Source: Candidatus Onthousia faecipullorum (GTDB lineage: Bacteria > Bacillota_I > Bacilli_A > RF39 > UBA660). From it: a stretch of 44,868 bases of DNA. Positions 1-39,310 of this stretch are shown in pieces. The stretch is from the NCBI GenBank assembly GCA_018715925.1, contig DVKQ01000002.1:1-44868 (forward strand), in the 5' to 3' direction. Below the pieces are notes generated by a model. It saw nothing but the letters and a program-made list of their open reading frames with translations, searched no databases and had not been told where the DNA came from. The translations under genes were made by a program, and so were the position numbers. The first letter of the stretch is position 1, and each line of letters opens with the position of its first letter.

Positions 1-650
1 ATTTACAAAATAAAGATAAATCTATTGAAGATTTTAAATTCTCATTTAAGAAGATGCCTATAGGTGGAACTTTATTTGATATGGAGAAGTTAAATAATAT
101 TTGTAGAACTTATTTTTCAAGAGTTAGTGCCGATACTATTTATAATGATGCCCTAGACTATTATAAAAAGTATGATAAAGAGTTTTATGATTTAATGGTA
201 AAAGATAAAGATAAGTTAGTTGCTTTCTTAAACATAGAGCGTGATAGTAAAAGACCAAGAAAGGATATTGCAACATATAAAGACATTAAAACAGAAAGTG
301 CCTATATATTTAACGATTTATTCTATAAAGATAGAAACGAAACTTATAAAGATATAGATGAGAAAATCGATTATGATGTTATTAATAAATATATAGAAAT
401 ATATCAAAACTTTGATAGTGAAGATGAGTGGTATAATCAGGTTAAAGTACTTGCCGAAGAAATGGGTTATGCTCCTAGTGTTAAAATGTATAAAGAAGAT
501 TCAACTCTATATAAAGGACATATAGGAGATGTATGTGAAATGATTAGACATCTACTTACTGGTAGAGTTAAGACTCCTAATTTATATCAATTATTAAAAA
601 TTATTGGAATTGATGAATTTAAAAATAGAGTAGAGTTTTATAAGAATTAA
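1..650 (+). CDS. gltX: glutamate--tRNA ligase, C-terminal part (5' end lies outside the window)
   Basis: Frame 3 is open from the window edge into ORF 54..650. The segment FSFKKMPIGGTLFDMEKLNNI resembles the conserved GluRS 'sgaiFD.eKL.w.N' segment and is followed by an anticodon-binding-type tail. Confidence 0.7.
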   Translation, partial: LQNKDKSIEDFKFSFKKMPIGGTLFDMEKLNNICRTYFSRVSADTIYNDALDYYKKYDKEFYDLMVKDKDKLVAFLNIERDSKRPRKDIATYKDIKTESAYIFNDLFYKDRNETYKDIDEKIDYDVINKYIEIYQNFDSEDEWYNQVKVLAEEMGYAPSVKMYKEDSTLYKGHIGDVCEMIRHLLTGRVKTPNLYQLLKIIGIDEFKNRVEFYKN

Positions 651-659
651 AGAGTTAGT

Positions 660-1496
660 TTATTTAAAAATGCTAACTCTTTTTTCATGTTCTTTAAACA
701 TATTTATCCGACTATTAAATTTAGTAATTATTTCATTCTTTAAGTTATTGTCTATTATAAAATCATTTTCTCTTTCAGTTTCTTCTATTATCTTTTCTAT
801 ACCTATAGAGTCTAGTGTATTAAGATAACTATAGAATTTCTCTTTATAAGCAGTATCAGAGTTTTCTATAAATTTATCTAATTTATCTAAATCACTTTTT
901 AAATAATCATCTTCATCTACGCCTAAAGCTGTACTTTTATCAGCTAGTATACTTGATGTATCATATAAAGGAGCGAGTGTTACGGTATTATAACTTTCTA
1001 TTATTTCTATATTTCTTAAAGTTCTATCAGATTCTCCTACTAATAGATCAAACATAAATATATTAGTAATGCCATCCATAAGATTTTTAACAATATTTTT
1101 ATCTTCATATCTATCTTCTAGAGCAAACCAAATATCTTCTAAATTATTTAAACTAGCTAGCTTTCTATAGTCTAATAGCTCATCATCATTGTTTTCGTAA
1201 AAGTAGTTTTGCATTAAGTTATGCAAATTATAACTTTTATCATCATCTTTTAAATAACTTTTATTAAGTAGTCCATATTTATCGTTTAAAATAGCAATAG
1301 ATTCTTTAAGATAAAGTATTCCTAAAAGGAAGGCAATAGTTTTAGAAATCATTTCCATTACTAGTTCTCTATTAGGTACTTCTTTAAAGTAATAAGTATC
1401 ATTATCCATTTTAAAATTGTATATAGTATGGCTTCCTTTAAAATTAGGAATTAAATTATCTTTGTTAATTATTTTATCTAAATTGACCATCTTCAT
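660..1496 (-). CDS. HipA-like (HipA_C kinase-fold) protein, degenerate motif
   Basis: FDLLVGESDRTLRNIEII...LAPLYDTSS resembles the HipA C-terminal motif (GN.DdH.kN ... LaP.YD), but the His is replaced by Thr. No HipB-like partner lies adjacent. Confidence 0.4.
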   Translation of the reverse strand: MKMVNLDKIINKDNLIPNFKGSHTIYNFKMDNDTYYFKEVPNRELVMEMISKTIAFLLGILYLKESIAILNDKYGLLNKSYLKDDDKSYNLHNLMQNYFYENNDDELLDYRKLASLNNLEDIWFALEDRYEDKNIVKNLMDGITNIFMFDLLVGESDRTLRNIEIIESYNTVTLAPLYDTSSILADKSTALGVDEDDYLKSDLDKLDKFIENSDTAYKEKFYSYLNTLDSIGIEKIIEETERENDFIIDNNLKNEIITKFNSRINMFKEHEKRVSIFK

Positions 1497-1590
1497 ATAA
1501 TCACCTATAAATATTTTATCATTAAATTTGTCATGTTAAAAGTGTATTAAAACCATTATAATAGATATACTATTAAAGGATGGTGATAAT

Positions 1591-2901
1591 ATGGAAATTA
1601 AAAGAGAAATACTTGAAGAAATAAGTAATAACTATATACAAGGTATTGAAAATAAAACAGTGAGATGTGCCCTTGTAAACAACAATATAAGAGATATTAT
1701 GAGAAATAAAGAAAGAGAAGGACAACTACTATTTAATTTTTCTATTAACCTTGACACTTTAAAGGCTGTAAATCAAAAAAATGCTAATAATTCTTTTATA
1801 TATGCAGGGTGTAATGTATTAAGAGAGTCTATATGTAAAAAATATGATTTAGAAAATTTTGAAATTTCTCAAAGTTATATATCTTTTTATGATAAATTAG
1901 AAAAATGTAATTATATAATGGAAAGTTTAGCCCAACTTAAAGATAAAGATGCAGATGATAGAGAAAGATACTTTTTATTAATAAAAGGTATAGAGGACGG
2001 TGGAGTTTGGGATTTCTTTTCTAATATTATTAACAAATATGGTTTTGTTCCTAAAACTGCAATGAGTGATACGTATCAAAGTCTTAATCCAGATGAAATG
2101 AATCATCTACTTAACAGAAAATTAAGGCAATTTAATGCAAGATTACTTACTAGTAATGAGAATTTAGATTATTTAAAAAGTTTATATTTAGATGATATTT
2201 ATAGAATACTAGCTTGTTGTTATGGTGTTCCACCAAAAAAGTTTGATTTTGAATATACTGATAAAGATAAAAAATATCATATCATTAAGGGGATTACTCC
2301 TTTAGATTTTTATCATGAATATACTGATATAAACATAAATAACTATGTATGTATTGCTAATGTACCAACAAAAGATAAAACTTTTAATAGAACTTATAGT
2401 GTTAAGTATTTACAAAATGTTATAGAAGGTAAAACACCTATATTTCTTAATCTTCCTATTGAAGAGTTAAAAAAACTTGTAATTAAGCAATTACAAGCCA
2501 AAGAAGTAGTTTGGTTAGGTTGTGATTTTAAAAAAACAATAGATAAAAAAGATGGAGTATTTGATGATATGAGTTTTAATTATTATGATACATTTAAAAC
2601 TGATTTCTTTATGACTAAAGAAGAGGCACTTGATAATTATGAAAGTTCAATGAATCATGCTATGGTAGTTACTGGAGTAAATTTAGAAGATAATAAATCA
2701 ACTAAATGGAAACTTGAGAATAGTTGGGGTGAAGATGTAGGTAATAAAGGATATTTTGTCGCTAGTGATTCTTGGTTTGAAAAGTATGTATATCAAGTAG
2801 TTATTAATAAGAAATATTTAACTCAAGAACAATTAGATGAAATGTCATATGAACCAGTAGAGTTAAAACCATGGGATCCTTTAGGAATGCTTGCTAGATA
2901 A
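1591..2901 (+). CDS. pepC: aminopeptidase C / bleomycin-hydrolase family (C1B) protein with Ser at the catalytic Cys position
   Basis: It aligns end-to-end with PepC as I remember it: NQK....., FE.SQ.Y..F.DK.EK.N, HAMV..GV, WK.ENSWG, GYFVASD.W and a C-terminal PWDP.G.LA. SGRCW is replaced by ANNSF. Confidence 0.8.
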   Translation: MEIKREILEEISNNYIQGIENKTVRCALVNNNIRDIMRNKEREGQLLFNFSINLDTLKAVNQKNANNSFIYAGCNVLRESICKKYDLENFEISQSYISFYDKLEKCNYIMESLAQLKDKDADDRERYFLLIKGIEDGGVWDFFSNIINKYGFVPKTAMSDTYQSLNPDEMNHLLNRKLRQFNARLLTSNENLDYLKSLYLDDIYRILACCYGVPPKKFDFEYTDKDKKYHIIKGITPLDFYHEYTDININNYVCIANVPTKDKTFNRTYSVKYLQNVIEGKTPIFLNLPIEELKKLVIKQLQAKEVVWLGCDFKKTIDKKDGVFDDMSFNYYDTFKTDFFMTKEEALDNYESSMNHAMVVTGVNLEDNKSTKWKLENSWGEDVGNKGYFVASDSWFEKYVYQVVINKKYLTQEQLDEMSYEPVELKPWDPLGMLAR

Positions 2902-2969
2902 TAAACTTTTTGTTGTGATTATTAATAAGTTGATATAAAATAAAAATATAGATAATATGAAACTTTTTG

Positions 2970-2998
2970 TTGACACTAGAATACTTGTTCGTTATAAT
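2970..2998 (+). promoter_or_regulatory. consensus sigma-A promoter with a LexA (Cheo-type) box in the spacer
   Basis: TTGACA (2970-2975), a 17-nt spacer, then TATAAT (2993-2998). The spacer contains aGAATACTTGTTCg (2979-2990), which is one core mismatch from GAAC-N4-GTTC. Confidence 0.55.
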
Positions 2999-3187
2999 AT
3001 ATAACAAAACAAATCATATTATCGAAGATTGGAGGTGCTTCTTTATGGCTTTTTTACTAAAATAAGGAGAGAAGCAACACCTAGTAAAGATAAAGATGAT
3101 ACGATTATACCAATTAAATGGTCTAAAAAAGTTCTTACTAAAAAGAAAAAAGCTATAGTAAATAAAATGGATGTGTAGGTGATTAAT

Positions 3188-3445
3188 ATGTGCAAAGTTG
3201 GTGATGTTATAGTAATAGACAAATATATTAGTGATGATGGGACAGTGTTATCACGTCATTTCTTTGTCGTAATTGATGATAATATTGATGAAATTAAAGG
3301 TTTAAAATATGATTTTGTTGCTAATGTTATGTCAAGTTTTAAAGATGAAAAACATAAACATAGAAAATTAAAGTATAAAGAAAATGTTGGAGTCACTAGC
3401 GATGATATAATTTCAGATAATAAAAATATTGAAGCTATTGTATAA
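3188..3445 (+). CDS. hypothetical protein; weak resemblance to the N-terminal part of long PemK/MazF-like proteins, apparently truncated
   Basis: The ATG at 3188 sits 4 nt after AGGTGAT. KVGDVIVIDKY..DG..LSRHFFVVIDD resembles the SH3-like start of MazF/PemK-fold proteins, and the ORF ends after 85 aa. Confidence 0.3.
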   Translation: MCKVGDVIVIDKYISDDGTVLSRHFFVVIDDNIDEIKGLKYDFVANVMSSFKDEKHKHRKLKYKENVGVTSDDIISDNKNIEAIV

Positions 3446-3477
3446 TGCTTTAAACAATACAGAAAGAAGGAAGTAAT

Positions 3478-4101
3478 ATGAGAGATGAATTAATGTACCC
3501 TAGAGCTTTTGCTCTAATGCCTGTACCTGTAGAAATGGCTTATAATAAAGCGGATTTTAAAGTTTATGACGGTGTATACTGCTATGTTGTATCTCCTTGC
3601 TATATTGTTAGAAGATGTACAGACTATATGCAAGATGAATATGGTATTGAAAATGATGGCTTTGAAGTCGTTTTCCCACGAAAATATTTAGGCGAACAAT
3701 TTGAGTTTAATAAAAGGACAATACCTGGAAAAAAATTAGATATAGTTCCTGAATTGTATCCTTCTGTTTCATATATTAATAGGAGAAAAAAATATAAAAA
3801 TACTATTTTTCTTGATTATAATCAGTTAACAGAAGATTATGAAGAAGCTATAAAAATACGTGATAGAGAAAATCATAAGTTAGTAATGAAACACATAATA
3901 AATCACGATTGTTTGTGTATTGATAGAAGTTGTGTAGACGATGATGCCTATAAAGATGCAATTAATGATAAGGCGACTGAAAAAATTGCTATATATAATG
4001 AAGAAGTAAATAAATATCAAGAAGAATTAAACAAATTAGAACCTAAAGAACAAGTAAATAAAACAGGTCTTATAGTGAAAAAATATATAATAAGGAAGTA
4101 G
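3478..4101 (+). CDS. hypothetical protein, paralog A of a tandem pair
   Basis: SD is GAAGGAAG. It shares MRDEL.YP.AFAL, VSPCY, YEEAIK.RD and KYQ..LN..EPKEQV blocks with ORF 4109..4615. Confidence 0.6.
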   Translation: MRDELMYPRAFALMPVPVEMAYNKADFKVYDGVYCYVVSPCYIVRRCTDYMQDEYGIENDGFEVVFPRKYLGEQFEFNKRTIPGKKLDIVPELYPSVSYINRRKKYKNTIFLDYNQLTEDYEEAIKIRDRENHKLVMKHIINHDCLCIDRSCVDDDAYKDAINDKATEKIAIYNEEVNKYQEELNKLEPKEQVNKTGLIVKKYIIRK

Positions 4102-4108
4102 AATTAAT

Positions 4109-4615
4109 ATGAGAGATGAATTAAAGTATCCTAAAGCCTTTGCTCTTCAGAAAATGGTAAAAAAAGCATGTATAAAATATAATAGTTTTGATGAAATATT
4201 AGGTTATATAGTTTCTCCATGCTATTTAATAGAAGAAAATTTATTATATGATAAAGATGGTAATAGTCGTAAAGAATATAAGGTTGTATTTCCTAGGAGT
4301 GTAGATAGTATATACTATGATTATATTGATAGAGATTATAAACCAGATATTAATATTTATGGAGAATGTAAAAATGCAGTTACAGTTGACTTTATAACAT
4401 ATGATTATGAAGAAGCGATTAAATTAAGAGATGAAAAGATAAGAGATAGGGTATTTAATGGAACAAATTTACTTTTACCAATAGAACCTATTGAAACTTA
4501 TAATGATAGATGTACTGAATATATGGAGAAAATTGAAAAATATCAACAAAGGCTTAATGAAGCTGAACCTAAAGAACAAGTGAAGAGAAAAATAAAAACA
4601 CCTGCAAAGTTGTAG
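4109..4615 (+). CDS. hypothetical protein, paralog B of a tandem pair
   Basis: Same conserved blocks as ORF 3478..4101. It starts 7 nt after the stop of paralog A. Confidence 0.6.
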   Translation: MRDELKYPKAFALQKMVKKACIKYNSFDEILGYIVSPCYLIEENLLYDKDGNSRKEYKVVFPRSVDSIYYDYIDRDYKPDINIYGECKNAVTVDFITYDYEEAIKLRDEKIRDRVFNGTNLLLPIEPIETYNDRCTEYMEKIEKYQQRLNEAEPKEQVKRKIKTPAKL

Positions 4616-4620
4616 GTGTT
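4597..4620 (-). terminator. rho-independent terminator of the native tRNA locus (minus strand)
   Basis: Hairpin AACACCT/AGGTGTT, followed on the minus strand by TTTTTATTTT. It lies 11 nt from the displaced tRNA 3' end copy. Confidence 0.55.
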
Positions 4621-4631
4621 AAATACTTTAT

Positions 4632-4646
4632 TGGTAGCCTGTACGG
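4632..4646. repeat. attL core (duplicated tRNA 3' end)
   Basis: TGGTAGCCTGTACGG is identical to 39234..39248. It is the reverse complement of the last 15 nt (CCGTACAGGCTACCA) of the tRNA. Confidence 0.8.
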
Positions 4647-4684
4647 CAATTTGCGACTATTGAAAAATAAGGGATTATAATACA

Positions 4685-4698
4685 TTTTGTGGTAAACC
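4685..4698. repeat. arm-type repeat TTTTGTGGTAAACC (copy 1)
   Basis: The same 14-mer recurs at 39135..39148. Both copies lie just inside the prophage ends, so they are candidate integrase arm-binding sites. Confidence 0.4.
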
Positions 4699-4732
4699 AG
4701 TGATTTTTTACCTCTTTTTTTGCCGATTTTTA

Positions 4733-5728
4733 CTAAATTTTATTAACTTCTCTGGTTAGTTCTTCTATCAATTTATGAGTATAAACTCGCTTAGTTAGAT
4801 CGGATATCCTATGTCCCATTATTAACTTGATAGAGTGTTCATCTGCTTTAACTCTAGCCATAAGTGTAGCGAATGTATGACGACAATCATAAGGGGTATG
4901 ATTACTCATGTCTAGTTCTTTTAGCTCACGTTTCCAAATTTGATAGAGACTATCTTGGCTACTATATCTTTCAAATCTTCTATTATTTATCAAGTCGTGA
5001 AAAATATCTTTAATTTTGTCGTTAAGAGGAACAACTCTATTTTTCCCTGACTCAGTCTTTAAACCTGTTACAAAATAATCTTCGTGTACTTCACTAATTA
5101 CAAGTAATTCTCCAGGTCTTACCCCAGTATAAATATCAACTAATATTTCATCAACGACATCATTTCTATTATTCCATAATTTTTCTATTTCTTCATCAGT
5201 AAATGGTTTGTGCTTATCAGATTCTACTTTTTTAGGCAATATTACCAATAAAGAGGCTTTATTTTTTAACTTTATATTAATACCTTTAGCATATTCGTAC
5301 ATTTGATTATACATATTTATTATCTTGCCACAATATTCTGAAGTGCAGTTAGCATTATCTACTATATCCTGTAAATCTCTACTGGTAATATCTTCAAATG
5401 CTTTATTTTCTAGGTGTTTATAATGTTTATAATAATTTTTATAAAGTTTTAATGTATTTTCAGCCATACCAGCTTTTTCTTTATATTTGTACCATAAATT
5501 AAATAAGTACTCAAATGAAACACCAACTAGATCTAGATCAAATAATTCATCGTGATATCTTGCTAGCATTTGTTTACCTTCAGCTCTTGTTCTAGCATAT
5601 CCTATCGTTTTCTTTATAGGTTTACCTTCGTCAGTCCAGTCAACAAATACTTGAACACGATAAGGTTTTCTTCTTCTTGATTTTCTATCAATTATAGATA
5701 CTGTTCCATATCCATTAGGATTTTTCAT
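4733..5728 (-). CDS. int: tyrosine recombinase / phage integrase
   Basis: RPGELL, HTPYDCRHTFATLM and GHRISDLTKRVYTH give the R...HxxR...H..Y catalytic pattern. An N-terminal SAM-like region is present, and the gene is adjacent to attL. Confidence 0.9.
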   Translation of the reverse strand: MKNPNGYGTVSIIDRKSRRRKPYRVQVFVDWTDEGKPIKKTIGYARTRAEGKQMLARYHDELFDLDLVGVSFEYLFNLWYKYKEKAGMAENTLKLYKNYYKHYKHLENKAFEDITSRDLQDIVDNANCTSEYCGKIINMYNQMYEYAKGINIKLKNKASLLVILPKKVESDKHKPFTDEEIEKLWNNRNDVVDEILVDIYTGVRPGELLVISEVHEDYFVTGLKTESGKNRVVPLNDKIKDIFHDLINNRRFERYSSQDSLYQIWKRELKELDMSNHTPYDCRHTFATLMARVKADEHSIKLIMGHRISDLTKRVYTHKLIEELTREVNKI

Positions 5729-12693: not shown

Positions 12694-13493
12694 AACCTAT
12701 AAAGATAGAATTATTTAACGACCACTTTCAAAATTATAAAAGGTATCAAATACCAAAGGCGCAACTAGTAATAGCAGATATACCTTACAATTTGGCAAAT
12801 AATGCTTATGCTAGTAGCCCTCAGTGGTACATAGATGGTGATAACAAAAATGGAGAAAGTAAGCTAGCAAATTCATCGTTCTTTGATACTGATAGTGACT
12901 TTAGAATAGCCGAGTACATGCACTTTTGTTCTCGTATGTTAATAAAAGAGCCTAAAGAGAAAGGCAAGAGCCCTGCAATGATAGTGTTTTGTGCATTTGA
13001 ACAATTACAAATGGTAATAGACTATGGTAAGAGATATGGATTTAATCACTACATACCATTAGTGTTTATAAAGAATTATTCCTCTCAGGTTTTAAAAGCT
13101 AATATGAAAATAGTAGGAGCAACTGAGTATGGTTTAGTTCTTTATAGAGATAAGTTACCAAAGTTCAATAATGATGGCAAGATGATATTTAATTGGTTTA
13201 ATTGGGAAAAAGATAGCAATTATCCTAAGATACACCCAACACAGAAACCTATTAACTTACTTAAAAGACTAATTGAAATATTTACAGACGAAGGAGATGT
13301 AGTAATAGACCCGGTGGCAGGTAGTGGCAGTACTCTAAGAGCTTGTCAAGAACTAAACAGGAGCTGTTATGGATTCGAGATAAAGAAGAACTTTTATAGG
13401 GGAGCAAAAGAAAAAATGATAATGAGTGATGAGAATTTTAAAAATCATAGTGATGCAGTAGATGGTCAAATATCATTATTTGAGGTGATTTAA
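12690..13493 (+). CDS. orphan DNA methyltransferase (N6_N4_Mtase family, beta class)
   Basis: Motif IV-like ADIPYN lies upstream of motif I VIDPVAGSGSTLRAC, and HPTQKP is present. No cognate endonuclease is nearby. Confidence 0.85.
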   Translation: MKPIKIELFNDHFQNYKRYQIPKAQLVIADIPYNLANNAYASSPQWYIDGDNKNGESKLANSSFFDTDSDFRIAEYMHFCSRMLIKEPKEKGKSPAMIVFCAFEQLQMVIDYGKRYGFNHYIPLVFIKNYSSQVLKANMKIVGATEYGLVLYRDKLPKFNNDGKMIFNWFNWEKDSNYPKIHPTQKPINLLKRLIEIFTDEGDVVIDPVAGSGSTLRACQELNRSCYGFEIKKNFYRGAKEKMIMSDENFKNHSDAVDGQISLFEVI

Positions 13494-18697: not shown

Positions 18698-18788
18698 CTT
18701 CTCCACTTATCTCCGCTTTAGATGTGCTATTATTGTATTATGAAGAATTATAAAAGTTCTTCACACCAAATACCCTTTTTATTCTTTG

Positions 18789-18811
18789 AGAGCTAGAAAT
18801 AGCTCTTTTTT
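18789..18811 (+). terminator. rho-independent terminator separating the early/middle and late operons
   Basis: AGAGCTA-GAAA-TAGCTCT followed by TTTTTT. Confidence 0.75.
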
Positions 18812-18829
18812 GTGTTGGGAGAAGATGAT

Positions 18830-18910
18830 ATGGAACCGCAAGATTTAGCTTTAATATTTTCATTTATTCTGTTAATCATCATACTAACTTTTTGGGCTAG
18901 GGGTAAATAA
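18830..18910 (+). CDS. possible 26-aa hydrophobic peptide (MEPQDLALIFSFILLIIILTFWARGK)
   Basis: ATG lies 8 nt after GGGAG. It has a single TM-like segment with a basic C-terminus, and it lies between the terminator and the tRNA-like element. Confidence 0.25.
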   Translation: MEPQDLALIFSFILLIIILTFWARGK

Positions 18911-18913
18911 TAT

Positions 18914-18987
18914 CGCAGATGTAGTGTAGTAGTAGCACACGAGTCTCTTTAGCTCGTAGGGTGGTGCAATTCCAACATCTGCAACCA
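18914..18987 (+). tRNA. non-canonical tRNA-like gene, anticodon CUU, with initiator-tRNA-type acceptor end (C1xA72, G2:C71, C3:G70, A73, encoded CCA)
   Basis: Manual fold:
- acceptor C|GCAGAT / ATCTGC|A, followed by ACCA
- D stem GTGT/GCAC
- anticodon stem CGAGT/GCTCG with loop CTCTTTA
- T stem GGTGG/CCAAC (one mismatch) with loop TGCAATT
The connector, variable loop and T-loop are atypical. Confidence 0.4.
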
Positions 18988-19014
18988 AGAAAGCAGTTAA
19001 GGAGGTGGTATCGA

Positions 19015-19398
19015 AAGGAAGAGAAGAAGAAAATAGGCAGACCTTTAAAATTTCAAAGTGTCGAGGTCTTGCAAAAGAAAATAGATGCTTATTTTGATGA
19101 TGAAAACAATAAACCCTATACTGTTTGTGATTTGTGTGTATGGTTAGATTGTGATAGACAGACTCTATTAAATTATCAAGAAAAAGAAGAGTTTTTTGAC
19201 ACTATAAAAAGAGCTAAAACAAAAATTGAAGCTAGTATAGAAAAGGGAGCCTTATTGGGTGTCTTTAATCCTACATTTTCTATTTTTAATATGAAAAACA
19301 ACTTTGGTTGGCAAGATAAACAAGAAATAGATACCACTTCTTCAAATAGAATAGAAATTATAAACGATTTGCCAAGTGATATAGATGAAGATAAGTAG
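19015..19398 (+). CDS. terS: terminase small subunit; start codon uncertain (proposed AAG at 19015; the track start GTG at 18961 has no SD)
   Basis: ..KKKIGRPLKFQSVEVLQKKIDAYF....KPYTV.DLCVWLDCDRQTLLNY is a typical TerS HTH N-terminus. TAAGGAGGTGGT (18998-19009) is followed after 5 nt by an in-frame AAG. Confidence 0.7.
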   Translation, partial: KEEKKKIGRPLKFQSVEVLQKKIDAYFDDENNKPYTVCDLCVWLDCDRQTLLNYQEKEEFFDTIKRAKTKIEASIEKGALLGVFNPTFSIFNMKNNFGWQDKQEIDTTSSNRIEIINDLPSDIDEDK

Positions 19399-20752: not shown

Positions 20753-21139
20753 ATGAGAAAAAAAGAATTAATAGAGTTTCAAAAAGAATTAATGAAAAAA
20801 TTCGAAGAAAAATGCGACAAATGTATTTCTTTAGAAGAAACAATAACAAAACTAAATGATATAAATAAAGAAATTAATTTAAAATATATGGTATTACTTG
20901 CAAAATATAATAAACTATTAAAATCCACGTTAGATAATGAAACAAAAAATATTACTTATAATGGCAAATTGTATAAAATTAATGAAGTTAATCATTATCA
21001 AAAAACTGGAGAAATTGAAAGCATAGTAATAACTGCACATAATATTCCAGAAAAAGAGGGTTTAGTTAACTCTATGGGTAAAGTTTTTAAAGAAGCTTAT
21101 GATAGTATTAATGAAACGTTGTTTGGAAATAAAAAGTAG
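20753..21139 (+). CDS. hypothetical protein between terL and portal
   Basis: SD is AAAGGAG. The N-terminus is coiled-coil-like. Confidence 0.5.
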   Translation: MRKKELIEFQKELMKKFEEKCDKCISLEETITKLNDINKEINLKYMVLLAKYNKLLKSTLDNETKNITYNGKLYKINEVNHYQKTGEIESIVITAHNIPEKEGLVNSMGKVFKEAYDSINETLFGNKK

Positions 21140-21148
21140 GTGATTTAA

Positions 21149-22627
21149 AAGGGATTATATCAAGACATACAAAATAAATTAAGTAAAAAAGGAATTAACC
21201 TTGTTGTTGGAGATATTTACGACATGATGGCAATATGGAAGTCGTGGTATCGTGGCAACGTTAATGACTTCCACTACTTCACTATGAAAATGGCAGATGG
21301 AACTACGAAACAGTGCGAAAGATTAACAATGAATATGCCGAAAAAAGTATGTGAAGACTTTGCAAAATTATTATGGTCAGAAAAAGTACAAATAAAGCTT
21401 GATAAGAAGAAAAACACGGAAAGACTATTAGAAGTATTAGACAGTAAAGAAAACAACTTTAAAGTCAACTTTCCTAACTTTCTAGAACGTGTTTTTGCTT
21501 TAGGTACAGGAGTTACTGTAGAATATCGAAAAGATGATAAGACTTTAATCGATTATATAGATGGCGATATAGTTATTCCTTATAAATATACCAACAGTTA
21601 TATAAATGGCTTAATAACTGTTAGTAGATTTACAAAAGGAGCCGATAAAGATAAAAAATATTTTACTCATATAACTTACCATGAGTTTAAAGATAGTAAA
21701 TATACAAAACTAAACGAATTATATGAGTCAAACAATGAAACAACTTTAGGAGAAGAAATCAACTTTAACGAAAAGTTTCCTGATGTATTGGAATTTGAAG
21801 AGTTCGATACAGACAATCCTCACTTTCAAGTATGGGAGCCAGTTGTTGCTAATAACTTCGACACAGATAGCCCTATGGGTATATCTATATTTGCTAATCA
21901 GATAGATAAATTTAAGGCTATAGATACAGAGTATGATAGTTTTAATCGTGAATTTAGAACTGGTAAGAAAAGAGTTCTAATTAGTAGAGAGGCAGTAAAG
22001 AAACATTATGTACCAGATCCAGAAGAAGAAGGAAAAGTTAATTTAGTTAGTTATTTTGATAATAATGATGAGGTATATGTTGCTATTGCAGGAATGGAAG
22101 ACCAGCCTGTTAAAGAAATCGATTTTAATTTAAGATACCAAGAGCATATTAGTTCAATAAATGCACAGTTAAATTACATTAGTGCCGGTGTTGGCTTAGG
22201 CCAGAACTATTATAACTTTGATGGTCAAGGTGTTAAAACTGCTACTGAAGTTGTATCTGAAAATAGTGATACATATAGAACTAAGAAACATCACGAGTTA
22301 ATGGTTAATGACTGCTTATATGATTTAGTCAAAGCAATATGTGAGCTTGAAGATATTCCTTATAAATCAATTAATATAGTCTTTGATGACTCTATTATCG
22401 AAGATGAAAATGCACTAATTCAAAGAGGATTAGAACTATATCAAAGTAAGACTATTTCGCTAGAAAAGTTTATGAAGAAATATCTACACTATGAAGATAG
22501 TGAAATTCAAGAAGAAATAGCAAAAATTCAAAGTGAAAATAAGTTAGTTCAACCAGAAGGTATGGACTTTTTTGGAATGGAACAAGAAACAGAAGTCCAA
22601 GATGAAGAAGTAGTAGAGGAGGGATAG
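21149..22627 (+). CDS. portal protein (SPP1 Gp6-like family); proposed AAG start at 21149, first ATG at 21224
   Basis: AIWKSWYRGNVNDFHYF and overall length and acidic C-terminus fit this portal family. The frame is open from the AAG that follows AGGTGAT-TTAA. Confidence 0.8.
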   Translation, partial: KGLYQDIQNKLSKKGINLVVGDIYDMMAIWKSWYRGNVNDFHYFTMKMADGTTKQCERLTMNMPKKVCEDFAKLLWSEKVQIKLDKKKNTERLLEVLDSKENNFKVNFPNFLERVFALGTGVTVEYRKDDKTLIDYIDGDIVIPYKYTNSYINGLITVSRFTKGADKDKKYFTHITYHEFKDSKYTKLNELYESNNETTLGEEINFNEKFPDVLEFEEFDTDNPHFQVWEPVVANNFDTDSPMGISIFANQIDKFKAIDTEYDSFNREFRTGKKRVLISREAVKKHYVPDPEEEGKVNLVSYFDNNDEVYVAIAGMEDQPVKEIDFNLRYQEHISSINAQLNYISAGVGLGQNYYNFDGQGVKTATEVVSENSDTYRTKKHHELMVNDCLYDLVKAICELEDIPYKSINIVFDDSIIEDENALIQRGLELYQSKTISLEKFMKKYLHYEDSEIQEEIAKIQSENKLVQPEGMDFFGMEQETEVQDEEVVEEG

Positions 22628-22854: not shown

Positions 22855-24606
22855 ATGTCTTTAAACGATTTAGAAGAACAAGTTGAGAGAATTTATATCG
22901 ATATGGAAAATGAATTGCTTTTGAATATTGCCAAAAAACTGTCTGCTGGTAAGCCTATGGAAGTAGACAAATGGGACGAAGTAAATCAGCAACCGTTAGT
23001 AGGCAGTGGCGAAGTAAATGAATGGCAATTACAGAGATTAAAAGAACTTAATGGTTTAAACGAAGAAAATGCAAAGATAATTGCCAAATATTCTGGTAAG
23101 ACCGTTGAAGAGGTAAATAAAGTCTTTGATAGAGCTAAAGAAATAGGTGTGACAAGAGATGAAACACTTATTCAAGAGGGAATTAAATTAGGAATACTTA
23201 ATGCAGTGGAGCCTGATACTGAAGAGTTGCTAGTTCGAAGCATTCTATCAAATGCAGTAGAAGAAATATTGACTACATTTAATAAGCAGAATAATAGCCT
23301 TTTAGCAAGTGCTGGAGATGAGTATAGGGATATAGTCAATAAAGTATCTTCCCAAGTTCTAGCAGGTACTAAAACCACTAATAAGGCCATGCAAGAAGCA
23401 GTAAGTCAGTTGGCAGAAAAAGGCTTAACTGGTTTTACTGCTAGAAATGGAGCAAGATGGAATCCAGAGGGGTATACAAAGATGGTTATTCGTACAAATA
23501 CACAGAATACTATTAACCGTATTCAAGACGAGAGAATACAAGCCTGTGGTGGCGATTTCATAGAAATTAGTTCGCATATAGGTGCTAGACCTTTGTGCGC
23601 TCAAGACCAAGGGCAAATATTTTCTTTGAGTGGTTATTCAGGATACATAGAAGATTTGGACGGTGGAAGAGTTAAAGTTAGACCGTGGAGTTCTTCAACT
23701 TATGGAAAACCTGCAGGAATACTTGGAATCAACTGTCGTCATTCAAGATATATGTTTGTTCCTGGACTGTCTAAAAAAAGAGAAATGGACTTTACCAAAA
23801 AAGAAAATGATAAAATTTATGCAGAAAGTCAAAGGCAACGTCAATACGAAAGAACGATTCGAAATAAAAAAAGAGAAATAGCAATGCTTAAACAAACTGG
23901 AGCAGAGCCTAGTTACATAAAGAGAAAACAAAATAGTTTAAGCAATACTAGAAAAGAATACCTGGAATTTTTAGATAAAACTGGTAGAACTAGAATAACA
24001 GCGAACGAATGGATAGGTAACACATCGTCAAGTCAGAAATCAAAAGTAATTAAGAAAAAAACAATTAAACAAAACAAAAATGAATATAAAAAATTAACTG
24101 TTACAGAGATAGAAAGAAGACAATCTTCAAGCGATGATGCATATAAAAAGTTCACTCTCTCAGAGAAGGAAGCTATTGATGAGTATTCAATGGGAGCTTA
24201 TCAAGATGTCAACGATTATTTAAATGGTAAATATCCAGATTATAAAATTGGAAAAGAAATCACAAAAGATATAGATAGTGCTATTTCAAAATACACACTA
24301 ACAGATAATATAGTTACATACAGAGGAACTGAGAAAAAATATTATGAAGGATTAACAATAGGAGATAAATTTTCTTTAAAAATGTATAGTAGTACTTCTT
24401 TAAATGAAAATATCGCAAAAACCTTTATGGAAGATAAAGAAAATGCTATAATGTTAGAAATTAGAGTTCCCAAAGGGACACCAAGTCTATATGTCGGTGA
24501 TAATAGTGCGTATGAATTTGAAGCAGAATTTCTTTTGGGAAGAGACTTGAGTTTTAAAGTTATTGATATTATTGATGATAGATTAATTGTGGAGGTTGTT
24601 AAATGA
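22855..24606 (+). CDS. MuF/SPP1-gp7-like minor head protein fused to a C-terminal mono-ADP-ribosyltransferase toxin domain
   Basis: The N-terminal two-thirds is head-morphogenesis-like (NTQNTINRIQDE, GARPLCAQDQGQIFS, INCRH). The C-terminus carries the R-S-E ART triad: VTYRGT, YSSTSL and EFEAEFLL (ExE). Confidence 0.8.
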   Translation: MSLNDLEEQVERIYIDMENELLLNIAKKLSAGKPMEVDKWDEVNQQPLVGSGEVNEWQLQRLKELNGLNEENAKIIAKYSGKTVEEVNKVFDRAKEIGVTRDETLIQEGIKLGILNAVEPDTEELLVRSILSNAVEEILTTFNKQNNSLLASAGDEYRDIVNKVSSQVLAGTKTTNKAMQEAVSQLAEKGLTGFTARNGARWNPEGYTKMVIRTNTQNTINRIQDERIQACGGDFIEISSHIGARPLCAQDQGQIFSLSGYSGYIEDLDGGRVKVRPWSSSTYGKPAGILGINCRHSRYMFVPGLSKKREMDFTKKENDKIYAESQRQRQYERTIRNKKREIAMLKQTGAEPSYIKRKQNSLSNTRKEYLEFLDKTGRTRITANEWIGNTSSSQKSKVIKKKTIKQNKNEYKKLTVTEIERRQSSSDDAYKKFTLSEKEAIDEYSMGAYQDVNDYLNGKYPDYKIGKEITKDIDSAISKYTLTDNIVTYRGTEKKYYEGLTIGDKFSLKMYSSTSLNENIAKTFMEDKENAIMLEIRVPKGTPSLYVGDNSAYEFEAEFLLGRDLSFKVIDIIDDRLIVEVVK

Positions 24607-25471: not shown

Positions 25472-25487
25472 AAGGAGAGTGATTTAA

Positions 25488-26624
25488 AAGGCAAATACTA
25501 TTAATACAAATGGTACTCATGAAAGACAAGAAAGATATGCTAGTCAAATCGTTAAATTAATGAGACCATACTTCAGAATTAGAAGTACATTTTCAAGAGA
25601 TTACGAAGGTAATCCAACAGCTGGAGCAGTTAAAGTCCCAGTAAGAAACATGGACGTAAATGTTCGTGATTACGATATTAAAAATGGTTTAGCATTAGAA
25701 CAAAGTGCTACAAACTATCTAAATATCCCTATCAATTTTAATAAAGGTATTAATGAGTTAATTGATGGATATGAAGCAGCAGCAGTTCCTGATAACTTAA
25801 TGGCTCAAAGAATGGAGAGCGCAGCTTATTCTTTAGCTAAAACATTTGAGGAAGATGCTATTAACGCATTAGTAAGTAATTCTACAGTATCTACTCAACC
25901 AGATGGAACTGTAGATAATATTTATATGAATATCGTTAAAGATATTGCTCAATTAGCTAAACGTGGTGTAGATAAGAATAGAATGTATGTTGCTGTATCT
26001 TACGCAACTGAAGCTTTATTACTTGCTAACCCAGTATATGCTAATACTTCATCACAAATTGGTGCAGAATTAGCTAGAAATGGTATTGTTAACAGAATAA
26101 ACGGTGTTAACATCATTACTCAAGACTTGGGAGAGACAGAAGACGGACAAGCAATTGAATATATTGTTTACGGTATTGACTGGACTCAAGCTATTGACGA
26201 GTGGATGGTTAACCCTGTTGTTGTTGACTTAACTACCGGTTCAAGCGAATATATTGGTGCTAGTGCATTAAAAGGACGTATGGTTTATGCTGATGCTGTA
26301 ACTGATAAAAACGCAGTTATTGTTAAGGCTAAAGTTGGTGTATCTGCAGTAGAAATTACACCAGTTGCTGGTTTATCTGGAACTTTAGCAGATTCTACTA
26401 AAGTAGCAGATTTAGCAAGTGTTGGTGGTAGTGGAACTGTAACTTATGCATTGCCTACTGGTGTAGCTGACAACGATAAATTTGAAATTAGTACTAACAC
26501 AGTAGTAACTAAAGACGGAACTACTGGAGCAGGTACTTATACTATCGTAGTTAATGCTACTGATACAGCTGATAATGAAGCTTCAGCAACTGCAACTATT
26601 AACGTAGCAGAAGCTAGTGAATAA
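25488..26624 (+). CDS. major capsid protein with C-terminal Ig-like decoration domain; proposed AAG start at 25488, first ATG at 25560
   Basis: Position after the scaffold, size and composition fit a capsid protein. The C-terminal ~90 aa (VTYALPTGV..FEISTNTVVTK..AGTYTIVVNATD) is Ig-like. The frame is open from the AAG after GAAGGAGAGTGAT-TTAA. Confidence 0.75.
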   Translation, partial: KANTINTNGTHERQERYASQIVKLMRPYFRIRSTFSRDYEGNPTAGAVKVPVRNMDVNVRDYDIKNGLALEQSATNYLNIPINFNKGINELIDGYEAAAVPDNLMAQRMESAAYSLAKTFEEDAINALVSNSTVSTQPDGTVDNIYMNIVKDIAQLAKRGVDKNRMYVAVSYATEALLLANPVYANTSSQIGAELARNGIVNRINGVNIITQDLGETEDGQAIEYIVYGIDWTQAIDEWMVNPVVVDLTTGSSEYIGASALKGRMVYADAVTDKNAVIVKAKVGVSAVEITPVAGLSGTLADSTKVADLASVGGSGTVTYALPTGVADNDKFEISTNTVVTKDGTTGAGTYTIVVNATDTADNEASATATINVAEASE

Positions 26625-27808: not shown

Positions 27809-28195
27809 ATGAATACAGAAAGTTTAATTACATTATTAAGAAATGAAATTGAAAAGACTGGTTATAAATGTTATTCGCCAGACTTACCTCAAAATCTTGA
27901 AAAAATAGTTGCTATTTCGTTAGGAGAAGGTACTAATGAACGTTCTTTAAATAAAGATATTCTATACTCTAGAATACCTTTTTATTTGCTTATTAGAGGC
28001 ACTTCTAATGATACAGAGACCAGAGGTATTGCTGATACTATTTTCAAGCAATTAGACCATAAAACAGACCTAGAAAATGACAATTTAAGAGTAATTTTAA
28101 TAAGTTGCAATATGCCAAACTATGCTTTTAGAGATGAAAATCAAAGAATACATTACAACATTAATTGTAATATTCAAGTCGAGTGGAAGGAGTGA
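27809..28195 (+). CDS. neck / tail-terminator-type protein
   Basis: Lies directly before the major tail gene. Confidence 0.4.
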   Translation: MNTESLITLLRNEIEKTGYKCYSPDLPQNLEKIVAISLGEGTNERSLNKDILYSRIPFYLLIRGTSNDTETRGIADTIFKQLDHKTDLENDNLRVILISCNMPNYAFRDENQRIHYNINCNIQVEWKE

Positions 28196-28200
28196 TTTAA

Positions 28201-28650
28201 AAGGCACAATACGAAAGTTCAGTTAAACAATTTAAAGTTCAATTTGATATTTCAGAGGAAGAACCAGCTGATTATCAAGATTTAATCGCTTTAACAATGT
28301 CATACGATCAAGGAGAAACCCTTGATACTTGGCAAGATTTATATAATTTCTTATCTAATAACGTAAAAACTGGATTAGACCCAACATGGTCAGTATCTGT
28401 TAAATTAGATAAATCAAGTCCAGTTTGTCAGTTTATTTTAGCTAAGGAATTTGCAGTAGGAGCAGAAGCAACTGCTAAATGTAAAATTATCAATTTACTT
28501 AAAGGTACAAGTGGTAAGCAAATAGACTTCACTGCTACTTTAAGTTCAATTACATACGAAGCTACTGCCGAAGAAGTATTACAAGTAGACTTTGACCTTA
28601 AAGTTTACGATAATTCTACATTTGAAGAAACAGACTATACAACAGGGTAG
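28201..28650 (+). CDS. major tail protein; proposed AAG start at 28201, first ATG at 28297
   Basis: It precedes the chaperone and tape-measure genes and has a strong downstream hairpin. The frame is open from the AAG after GGAAGGAGTGAT-TTAA. The ATG at 28297 has no SD and would give a truncated 117-aa product. Confidence 0.7.
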   Translation, partial: KAQYESSVKQFKVQFDISEEEPADYQDLIALTMSYDQGETLDTWQDLYNFLSNNVKTGLDPTWSVSVKLDKSSPVCQFILAKEFAVGAEATAKCKIINLLKGTSGKQIDFTATLSSITYEATAEEVLQVDFDLKVYDNSTFEETDYTTG

Positions 28651-35455: not shown

Positions 35456-35797
35456 ATGAGTAATAGTGTGCTTAAAGATAAAGACGAGAAAATATTGAAC
35501 CCAAAAATTCCAAGATATGAAAAATTTAAAAGACAGTTTGAAAGTGGAGAAATATTAACTAATCAAATGACCGATGGACAAATTGGAGGTATAACAGGAG
35601 CTTACTATAATTTGACATTTAAAAAAAGTTACAATACTGTACCTAAGATTCTTTTAGAGCCTAAAACTAAAGTTGATAATATGGGGTTTGTTCAAACACT
35701 TGTTGAAAATTTAAGCACAACAGGGTGCAGAATATGGATAAATTCTCAACCACACTCAAATAATTATAGTGTTATGTATTTCATATTCGAAGAATGA
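35456..35797 (+). CDS. fibre/receptor-binding-like cassette 1 (113 aa)
   Basis: SD is AAGAGGTGGG. The N-terminus MSNSVLKDKDEKILNPKIPRYE is shared with the two downstream ORFs, while the C-terminus is unrelated. Confidence 0.55.
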   Translation: MSNSVLKDKDEKILNPKIPRYEKFKRQFESGEILTNQMTDGQIGGITGAYYNLTFKKSYNTVPKILLEPKTKVDNMGFVQTLVENLSTTGCRIWINSQPHSNNYSVMYFIFEE

Positions 35798-35831
35798 GTA
35801 TAACTCATAGTTAAGCTAAAAAGCGAAATAT

Positions 35832-36236
35832 GTGAATGAAGTATTGAAAGATAAAAACGGAAATATATTGAACCCTAAAATTCCAAGATACGAATACAAT
35901 TTATATACAAATGAAGAACCTATTAAAACAGGACGCAAAATAAATGGCAAAAATGAATATGTAAAAAGGGTATCTATTCCTCAATTACCAAATAATGGTA
36001 GTTTAGAAATAGGCACTGGTTTGAACATTAACGAAATAAAAGTAATTGATTTAAAAGGTTTAGCTTATAGAAGTTCAGACAACACATATATTCCGCTACC
36101 ATTTATTAGCATGGCTGGAATAAATATTGGTCTTAACACAAAAGTGATAGATAATATATTGAACATATTAATTGAAACTAGTAGTGATAGGACTAATTTT
36201 ACTGGTTGGGCAGAAGTTAGTTTTATATATAATTGA
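35832..36236 (+). CDS. fibre/receptor-binding-like cassette 2 (134 aa)
   Basis: GTG start with no SD. N-terminus NEVLKDKNGNILNPKIPRYE and a divergent C-terminus. Confidence 0.45.
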   Translation: MNEVLKDKNGNILNPKIPRYEYNLYTNEEPIKTGRKINGKNEYVKRVSIPQLPNNGSLEIGTGLNINEIKVIDLKGLAYRSSDNTYIPLPFISMAGINIGLNTKVIDNILNILIETSSDRTNFTGWAEVSFIYN

Positions 36237-36247
36237 GAGAGAATTAA
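36235..36247. repeat. 13-bp inverted repeat, right copy (GAGAGAGAATTAA)
   Basis: Perfect reverse complement of 35426..35438. Confidence 0.8.
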
Positions 36248-36259
36248 ATAGCCGTTTAT

Positions 36260-36667
36260 ATGGCAAATAATGTATTAAAAGATAAAGATAATAATATATT
36301 AAATCCTAAAATTCCACGATACGAAAATCTTAAAAATTATTCAGAGGAAGAGCAACTTGTTGGTAATTATCTTAGTAGACCATTATATAGAAAAGTTGTA
36401 GAATTTGGTGCTTTTCCGAGTAACGGCCAAAGAACAGTAAATCATAATATATCAGATTTAGATGACATAATGTGGTTTAATTACTGTTGGTTTGATACTT
36501 CTGACCATAAATGGTTTAGTGGACCAAGAGTTGATAGCTCTTCTGTTATTTGTAAAGTTGCAGTTAATGACACATCGTTAATTATTGAAGGTTTAGGTAA
36601 TGTTGCCTGGGCTGATAGAACAATTAAAGGAAAATGTACAATTTATTATCATAAAACGACAGATTAA
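36260..36667 (+). CDS. fibre/receptor-binding-like cassette 3 (135 aa)
   Basis: ATG with no SD. N-terminus MANNVLKDKDNNILNPKIPRYE and a divergent C-terminus. Confidence 0.45.
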   Translation: MANNVLKDKDNNILNPKIPRYENLKNYSEEEQLVGNYLSRPLYRKVVEFGAFPSNGQRTVNHNISDLDDIMWFNYCWFDTSDHKWFSGPRVDSSSVICKVAVNDTSLIIEGLGNVAWADRTIKGKCTIYYHKTTD

Positions 36668-39134: not shown

Positions 39135-39148
39135 TTTTGTGGTAAACC
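39135..39148. repeat. arm-type repeat TTTTGTGGTAAACC (copy 2)
   Basis: Identical to 4685..4698. Confidence 0.4.
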
Positions 39149-39233: not shown

Positions 39234-39248
39234 TGGTAGCCTGTACGG
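39234..39248. repeat. attR core
   Basis: TGGTAGCCTGTACGG is identical to 4632..4646 and forms the 3' end of the tRNA. Confidence 0.8.
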
Positions 39249-39310
39249 GTTTTGAACCCGTGAATACGAGCTTGAGAGGCGCGCGTGTTAAACCACTTCA
39301 CCAACAGGCC
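39234..39310 (-). tRNA. tRNA, folded by hand as tRNA-Glu (anticodon CUC)
   Basis: Minus-strand sequence: GGCCTGT TG GTG.AAGTGGTTTAA.CAC G CGCGC CTCTCAA GCTCG TATTC ACGGG TTCAAAA CCCGT ACAGGCT A CCA. It closely resembles B. subtilis tRNA-Glu in architecture, with one C/T mismatch in the anticodon stem. Confidence 0.7.

Follow-up and report, generated by a model that had tools for sequence, protein, structure and literature searches.

Here we describe a transfer RNA (tRNA) gene with the anticodon CUU, located at positions 18914-18987 on the forward strand of a 44,868-nucleotide (nt) stretch of DNA of Candidatus Onthousia faecipullorum (contig DVKQ01000002.1). This whole stretch, hereafter the window, has a GC content of 29% and contains prophage genes, and the tRNA gene lies just upstream of terS. 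Comparison with related phages makes it highly likely, in our view, that the gene encodes a functional initiator tRNA, a descendant of tRNAfMet whose anticodon changed from CAU to CUU, and that this tRNA is dedicated to the virion genes terS, portal, head and putative tail, all of which would start with AAG. With slightly less confidence, we also think it likely that temperate phages of low-GC Bacilli and Mollicutes-like gut bacteria run a natural orthogonal initiation system, in which an initiator tRNA with a CNU anticodon (CUU, CCU or CGU) is matched to a private start codon (AAG, AGG or ACG) on the genes for terminase, portal, capsid and tail. As part of the same interpretation, start-codon recoding appears to be the initiation counterpart of phage stop-codon recoding.

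The tRNA gene is supported by ARAGORN, by Rfam, by covariation in relatives and by similarity to CAU initiators. ARAGORN independently called a tRNA-Lys(ctt) with the exact span 18914-18987, and the Rfam model RF00005 matched positions 18915-18983 with 41.0 bits, above its gathering score of 29 (E=2e-5 for the whole window, both strands). The preliminary description, made from the letters alone, had proposed a tRNA-like gene with a CUU anticodon and an initiator-type acceptor end, hidden inside a predicted 5' extension of terS; every base that it listed is present where it was placed, the covariance-model score that it had asked for lies above threshold, and the proposal is upheld, with the terS extension judged to be spurious. 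In the cloverleaf, C18914 faces A18983, which gives a mismatch at 1:72, and GCAGAT (18915-18920) pairs with ATCTGC (18977-18982) to form the acceptor stem. The 3' end consists of A18984 followed by an encoded CCA (18985-18987). The D stem GTGT/GCAC (18924-27 / 18935-38) encloses the 7-nt loop AGTAGTA and is followed by A18939. The anticodon stem CGAGT/GCTCG carries the loop C-T-CTT-T-A, with the anticodon CTT at 18947-18949 (forward strand), which reads AAG and covaries with the first codon of the late genes across phages, and the T loop is TGCAATT. The fold energy of the sequence relative to shuffled versions corresponds to z=-3.35.

Relatives of the window locus (denoted below by L numbers) were obtained from IMG/VR by means of their terS proteins, and additional loci by searching viral, genome and metagenome collections with degenerate tRNA patterns. 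Neither a blastn search of a 351-nt region against cultured phage genomes nor an exact 36-nt search of IMG/VR gave a match. Relatives identified through terS carry a tRNA gene just upstream of it: an Arg-CCU tRNA in L001 (56 bits), and CUU tRNAs in L002, L009 and L010. For the subfamily to which the window tRNA belongs, ten distinct 74-nt sequences could be aligned without gaps (alignment A2). Under a structure with 8+4 stems, 95% of the cells of this alignment are paired, compared with 36-50% in controls in which the partner was slid. Two-sided changes affect six pairs, of which the acceptor stem contributes three, the anticodon stem two and the T stem one; the slid controls have 0-1 such pairs. 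Compensatory changes in homologues, proposed earlier as a check, are therefore found among the ten relatives; the D stem shows no two-sided change. Position 1:72 is unpaired in all ten members. The preliminary description had left two registers open, a 3-nt connector between the acceptor and D stems or an 8/4 arrangement; the second of these is favoured, as G18921-C18976 can pair in 10/10 members and the alternative G18960-C18976 in 2/10 only. The alignment thus indicates that the stack in this subfamily is an unpaired 1:72 followed by 7 base pairs and a four-level T stem (a GxA mismatch plus 3 base pairs). Sequence comparison thus shows a conserved tRNA at 18914-18987 whose acceptor end has the determinants of an initiator.

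The initiator-like termini, which had been singled out as the striking part of the gene, turn out to be the key to its origin. We compared 40 variant tRNAs with 54 CAU initiators from the same data. All variant members share the ends 5'-NGC...GCAACCA-3', and position 1:72 is mismatched in 39/40 (C-A in 29, A-A in 5, G-A in 5 and U-A in 1 of the 40). G2:C71, C3:G70 and A73 are present in 40/40, the 3' side of these being partly fixed by the search patterns, and they are also present in 5/5 loci that were found via terS alone. G30:C40 is likewise invariant (40/40). In bacteria, the 1:72 mismatch, G2:C71, C3:G70 and A73 mark tRNAfMet for the formyltransferase; of the three GC pairs in the anticodon stem, G30:C40 alone can suffice for passage past IF3, and natural tRNAfMet variants with incomplete sets of these pairs occur in mycoplasmas and rhizobia (PMC5389676).

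Similarity in sequence points in the same direction. Within a set of 267 unique tRNAs from the fetched loci, the L010 tRNA shares 87% identity with a CAU initiator encoded in a Saccharibacteria metagenome-assembled genome (MAG), and its identity to non-initiators does not exceed 71%. For the window tRNA itself the corresponding values are 76% for a CAU initiator and 71% for other tRNAs; it is connected to L010 through L145, with which it shares 83% identity and which is 95% identical to L010. The variant members of canonical length resemble ordinary initiators except for the anticodon. Scans in which the anticodon was left unconstrained returned only CAU, CUU, CCU and CGU among the tRNAs with this 3' end, so that the variant anticodons differ from CAU at the middle base alone. 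The elbow consensus G18 G19 / U55 C56 is missing from the window tRNA, whose D loop reads AGUAGUA and whose T loop, UGCAAUU, has G55. Because genuine CAU initiators from several lineages have these same loop variants, we regard this as a lineage trait. Taken together, these comparisons indicate that the variant family is derived from tRNAfMet. With CUU in place of CAU, one of the three GC pairs and U11:A24, the window tRNA is derived from tRNAfMet but is not itself one, strictly speaking. Two other positions recur in the variant family, U31.G39 (33/40) and U37 (30/40); the CAU initiators mostly have G31:C39, and A37 in 52/54. Such changes may have arisen to compensate for the new anticodon.

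A second body of evidence comes from the genes that such a tRNA would serve. The open reading frame (ORF) finder starts terS at GTG 18961, which lies in the T arm of the tRNA, upstream of the Shine-Dalgarno (SD) sequence and without a ribosome-binding site of its own. The SD sequence, AAGGAGGTG (9 nt, 18999-19007, forward strand), begins 12 nt past the 3' end of the tRNA and is conserved as GGAGGTGGTAT in relatives. The terS gene (GP3_package; Pfam PF16677, 1e-25) would occupy 19015-19398 on the forward strand, with AAG 19015-19017 as its proposed start at an aligned spacing of 9 nt from the SD. No in-frame ATG, GTG or TTG is present between the SD and the conserved GRPLKF motif. Other candidates were rejected: ATC 19010 is out of frame and meets a stop after 8 codons, and GTG 18961 and GTG 18964, both in the T arm, are not preceded by an SD. 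In L002, the terS AAG comes immediately after a TGA, and 49 codons separate it from the next canonical codon; L001, with its CCU tRNA, has AGG at the first-codon position. In L003-L008, terS relatives without the tRNA, the gene begins at an ATG behind an SD. An automated scan for stops between tRNA and start was noisy, sometimes taking an AGG within the SD, and of its results only the clear cases, L002, L010, L016, L152, L223 and L279, are relied on.

In all, four open frames of the window (terS, portal, head and tail) begin with an AAG 7-9 nt past an SD of 6-9 nt; the latter three were found when all long open frames were scanned. The next canonical codon in these frames lies 18-32 codons downstream, without a detectable SD of at least 5 nt. 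In the portal, head and tail frames the AAG directly follows a TAA stop codon, and their initiation regions share GGAG(T/G)TGATTTAA followed by AAG. All three genes are on the forward strand. Portal (SPP1_portal, 21149-22627) has the SD AGGTGAT (21138-21144), then the in-frame TAA 21146-21148 and the proposed start AAG 21149, with the first ATG 25 codons downstream. Across 16 loci the 25 amino acids (aa) preceding that Met are conserved while their codons differ synonymously, and the annotated portal start of the cultured Bacillus phage PfNC7401, ATG GGC CTA, aligns codon for codon with AAG GGA TTA of the window. The major head protein gene (phrog_267, 25488-26624) has the SD AAGGAG (25472-25477) and TAA 25485-25487 before its proposed start AAG 25488; the first ATG follows 24 codons downstream, and the protein read from this AAG is predicted to begin with K-ANTINTNGTHER. 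The same arrangement of TAA and AAG is found at the head gene in the window and in L285, L286, L172, L199, L236 and L152. The putative major tail protein gene (28201-28650), which is assigned by position only and whose product gave no family match in Pfam/PHROG-type searches of the window proteins, has the SD AAGGAG (28187-28192) and TAA 28198-28200 before AAG 28201. The nearest ATG in this frame lies 32 codons further on, and the internal Met has no counterpart in L287. Other late genes in the window use ATG, namely terL (19385), minor capsid (22855) and scaffold (24944). On sequence grounds, AAG is the first codon behind a strong SD in terS, portal, major head and putative tail, and these genes have no usable canonical start.

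Across phages, the anticodon of the tRNA and the first codon of these genes change together. The contig of L001, also listed as L287, belongs to a sister phage with a CCU tRNA, whose proteins are 90% (terS), 93% (terL), 79% (portal), 71% (head) and 85% (tail) identical to those of the window. All four homologous genes (4/4) have AGG as their first codon in this phage. The window genes contain 38 internal AAG codons, and at none of these positions does the sister phage have AGG; it has a single internal AGG across five aligned late genes. Portal likewise begins with AAG in 15 loci that have a CUU tRNA and with AGG in the one that has a CCU tRNA. We then considered the unique initiation regions of all fetched loci in which a non-canonical codon lies at most 3 codons past an upstream stop and behind an SD of at least 6 nt. 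Phages with a CUU tRNA gave AAG in 18 regions and neither AGG nor ACG; those with a CCU tRNA gave AGG in four and neither AAG nor ACG; those with a CGU tRNA gave ACG in two and neither AAG nor AGG. Thus, no mismatched combination of anticodon and first codon was found among the unique initiation regions of the fetched loci.

Genes adjacent to the tRNA follow the same pattern, with about 22 cases of CUU with AAG, CCU with AGG in L001, L176, L223 and L279, and CGU with ACG in L016. A small ORF of 70 codons beside the tRNA begins with ACG in L016 (CGU), with AGG in L176, L223 and L279 (CCU), and with ATG in L191; the L279 version has no internal ATG. In less related phages, frames of the size of portal or capsid genes have the cognate first codon, AGG in L176, L223, L180, L203 and L189, and ACG in L241, L249 and L016; the L241 frame has no canonical start for 184 codons. 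At a minimum, the change between CUU and CCU in the lineage of the window arose independently of the CGU/CCU/ATG series seen in the small ORF. Initiator-like tRNAs with CCU or CUU anticodons and with G1xA72 or A1xA72 are also found in two further sets of loci (L192/L194/L211/L218/L225/L235 and L214/L231), in which terS starts with SD+ATG; the tRNAs of L214 and L231 have the full GGG/CCC in the anticodon stem.

If this interpretation is correct, late transcription would make the tRNA, and RNase P together with 3' trimming would release it with its encoded CCA; processing out of the late transcript is probably part of the explanation. U35, U36 and A73 are lysine identity elements, and for this reason lysyl-tRNA synthetase (LysRS) is expected to charge the phage tRNA. 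Recognition by the host formyltransferase (Fmt) would rest on the mismatched 1:72 together with G2:C71 and C3:G70. IF2 would then bring the tRNA to the 30S P site, where G30:C40 would allow passage past IF3 on the fully complementary AAG. Since a mismatch at the middle codon-anticodon position is not tolerated at initiation, the host tRNAfMet would be barred from AAG and the phage tRNA from AUG. With neither initiator reading the start codon of the other, synthesis of the main virion proteins would be locked to expression of the phage tRNA. Engineered initiator tRNAs are in line with these steps: in a set of 31 anticodon mutants, translation starts at the non-AUG codons that match the new anticodons, and a cognate middle codon-anticodon pair is required (PMC11744186). 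In E. coli, the host initiator yields 0.01-1% of the AUG level at codons outside AUG/GUG/UUG/AUN/CUG (bioRxiv 10.1101/063800), and on AAG it would therefore be too weak for a major capsid protein. The phage might benefit by keeping virion synthesis locked in the lysogen, by timing its late expression or by being protected against exploitation.

Several observations weigh against this interpretation. Firstly, the nearest-neighbour minimum-energy fold of the window tRNA is a rod (-26.1 kcal/mol), and the cloverleaf reaches -18.9 kcal/mol; support for the cloverleaf therefore comes from covariation and the covariance model and not from thermodynamics, and thermodynamic folding was dropped as support because it did not recover the cloverleaf. 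Secondly, the tRNA departs from tRNAfMet at several positions: the anticodon stem has A29:U41, G30:C40 and U31.G39 instead of three consecutive GC pairs, U11:A24 (GUGU/GCAC) replaces the A11:U24 that is seen in L001 and L010, and U37 is unusual. Lys-tRNA is, moreover, reportedly a poor substrate for the E. coli formyltransferase, according to work of the RajBhandary laboratory. Thirdly, the window terS frame is open back into the tRNA, and the sequence alone therefore leaves GTG 18961 as a conceivable start; the downstream ATG 21224 of portal has a weak GGAG about 10 nt upstream. Fourthly, the loci are phylogenetically related, so that the counts given above overstate the number of independent events, and the L192, L214 and L231 groups have the tRNA, a terminator and an ATG-start terS, with no cognate-start gene in their short flanks. 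Finally, the evidence is comparative throughout, and charging, formylation and N-termini at AAG with Lys or formyl-Lys are predictions.

Of the alternatives, the highest-ranked one, which we nevertheless consider very unlikely, is that the gene encodes an ordinary elongator tRNA-Lys(CUU) that supplements the decoding of AAG in a host whose genome is AT-rich and whose set of tRNAs is reduced. It agrees with the ARAGORN label, with the combination of the CUU anticodon and the discriminator A73, with the GC content of the window and with the closest MAG hosts being labelled as uncultured Bacilli or Tenericutes. Such groups often lack C34 isoacceptors, and all three variant anticodons are of the C34 type. 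However, AAG makes up the same share of Lys codons, 0.22, in the late phage genes and in the host flanks, and there is thus no extra demand for AAG decoding; AGG in the sister phage is nearly absent internally (one codon in five late genes) and yet is the first codon of four genes. On these grounds of codon usage, codon supplementation was rejected. Moreover, the whole family has kept an unpaired 1:72 together with G2:C71 and C3:G70, a combination that disfavours use by EF-Tu in bacteria, and instead of the paired 1:72 and the purine at position 37 (the site of t6A37) expected of an elongator, the window tRNA has C1xA72 and U37. Its sequence resembles initiators and not Lys tRNAs, and an elongator would leave both the missing canonical starts and the covariation of anticodon and first codon unexplained. 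The phage tRNA may nonetheless have a minor additional role in elongation.

Somewhat less probable still is that AAG is not a start at all, and that the genes begin at downstream ATG, GTG or TTG codons and have nothing to do with the tRNA. The ORF listing indeed gives canonical starts for the four genes at 18961, 21224, 25560 and 28297, and the one at 21224 is preceded by the weak GGAG mentioned above. Against this, the regions between AAG and ATG are conserved as protein, with synonymous changes, and Met1 of the PfNC7401 portal aligns with AAG 21149. The internal Met of the tail gene is not shared by L287, the small ORF of L279 has no internal ATG, and the frames in L002 (with its TGA before the terS AAG) and L241 offer no canonical start for 49 and 184 codons, respectively. 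The strong SDs precede the AAGs and not the ATGs, and downstream starts give no reason why four first codons should switch from AAG to AGG in step with the anticodon.

The position of the gene, between a terminator-proximal leader and the terS SD, with 11 nt from the CCA end to the SD, would also suit a cis-acting element without a decoding function, either a tRNA-like punctuation mark at which RNase P/Z frees the terS mRNA, or a decoy for an anticodon nuclease; phage tRNAs with altered anticodon loops are said to evade tRNA-targeting defences. We give this very little weight, since it does not explain why the anticodon matches first codons 2-9 kb away, nor why the match is kept when the anticodon changes. 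The least credible alternative, a functionless pseudogene or leftover integration-site fragment, could draw on the departures from the tRNA consensus (no G18G19, G55, U37 and a shortened T stem) and on an Rfam score of 41 bits compared with 53.7 for the host tRNA in the same window, but it is contradicted by the full length and encoded CCA, the same position in many phages, compensatory changes, invariant functional positions, and the location of the prophage att core elsewhere (4685 and 39135). The earlier reservation that the gene might be degenerate fails on the same evidence, with the score above threshold and the compensatory changes in relatives; the atypical features behind it are not signs of decay, as the D- and T-loop variants recur in genuine CAU initiators and U37 in 30/40 of the variant family.

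The orthogonal initiation proposed here can be compared with several known systems. Among them are the engineered initiator mutants of E. coli (for instance tRNAfMet-CUA at UAG, or i-tRNA-AAC), which likewise combine an initiator body carrying a non-CAU anticodon with a complementary start codon behind a normal SD, orthogonal to AUG. They are, however, man-made, whereas the phage pairs are natural and the start codons of several essential virion genes would have co-evolved with the tRNA; unlike the engineered mutants, the phage tRNAs also have the recurrent U31.G39 and U37, and the window subfamily has 8+4 stems. Canonical tRNAfMet, including copies carried by phages, shares with the variant family the 1:72 mismatch, G2:C71, C3:G70, A73 and G30:C40, with identities of up to 87% for close relatives. 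It differs from the window tRNA in having CAU and not CUU, all three GC pairs and not only the middle one, A37 and not U37, and no U11:A24; with the CUU anticodon, recognition by MetRS and reading of AUG would be lost. Ordinary phage elongator tRNAs, with roles in codon-usage compensation or in escape from tRNA-targeting defence, resemble the window tRNA in being encoded beside the late genes of a phage genome, but the window tRNA has the features of an initiator, shows no codon-usage signal and is linked to first and not to internal codons.

Phage suppressor tRNAs reportedly read in-frame stops in late genes (work of Borges et al. in 2022 and related studies). In those stop-codon-recoding phages, too, a phage tRNA with an altered anticodon gates the translation of late, structural genes. 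The difference is that stop-codon recoding is elongation on stop codons, while the proposed system would be initiation on the sense codons AAG, AGG and ACG with an initiator-type tRNA.

The genes of the window are arranged in the order integrase (4733-5728), early genes, terminator (18788-18815), small ORF, tRNA, terS, terL, portal, head, tail and lysis. The window contains just one further tRNA, a host tRNA-Glu(CUC) at 39234-39310 on the reverse strand (53.7 bits). A 14-nt direct repeat, TTTTGTGGTAAACC, at 4685-4698 and 39135-39148 flanks the block from integrase to endolysin, with the tRNA-Glu about 85 nt outside it; this repeat is probably the att core and marks the ends of a 34.5-kb prophage. 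The terminator-like hairpin at 18788-18815 is followed by a 26-codon ORF (18830-18910) for a hydrophobic peptide, MEPQDLALIFSFILLIIILTFWARGK; a distance of 3 nt separates the end of this ORF from the tRNA. At its C-terminus, the minor capsid protein (Phage_min_cap2, 22855-24606) carries a fused ADP-ribosyltransferase exoenzyme domain (PF03496, 1e-22). Between the tail and lysis genes, three consecutive paralogous ORFs (113, 134 and 135 aa, 35456-36667) share a 5' 60-nt repeat, D1, with 80-82% identity.

Two observations concern relatives of the window phage. L284 (IMGVR_UViG_3300029782_000304) has a head gene starting with AAG and no tRNA. It was set aside as a counter-example because it has a Cas9-size ORF, a CRISPR array and a phage fragment only; not being a whole phage, it is uninformative in this respect. 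Its CRISPR array (12820-13060) has the 36-nt repeat GTTTTAGATCTATGTCATCTTTGATGGTATTAAAAC and adjoins a region (293-5168) with ORFs of the size of Cas9 (1337 aa) and Cas1. The phage fragment, located between these cas genes and the array, carries scaffold and head genes 98% identical to those of the window, and one spacer, CTACCCCTGCAACCAAAACAATCAAGGAGG, matches the 3' end of the initiator-like tRNA and the terS SD of this phage family. In L177 and L189, terL appears to be interrupted near Walker A, about 150-200 nt downstream of the CCU tRNAs: FGGAAS is followed by an in-frame TAG and then by VGGGKSW in another frame, with an extra TAA in L177. A programmed frameshift, recoding or an assembly error are possible causes.

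A full-text literature search returned no natural precedent for a non-CAU initiator with recoded starts, a search that left subscription journals largely uncovered, so that a prior report is possible. If confirmed, the system described here would be, as far as we could find, the first natural non-CAU initiator tRNA matched to recoded start codons. On the practical side, terminase, portal and capsid genes of many metagenomic phages are probably misannotated at their starts or given spurious 5' extensions, of which the terS extension in the window is one example. The phage pairs would also provide naturally optimised parts for orthogonal initiation, including the candidate compensatory changes U31.G39 and U37, and, as the change of the middle base fits the known proofreading by IF3, questions about the fidelity of initiation become directly testable. 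For the phages themselves, the system would add a new layer of regulation, a translational lock through which virion production depends on a single small RNA, and it would imply that the identity of the bacterial start codon is evolutionarily flexible when the tRNA and the genes change together.

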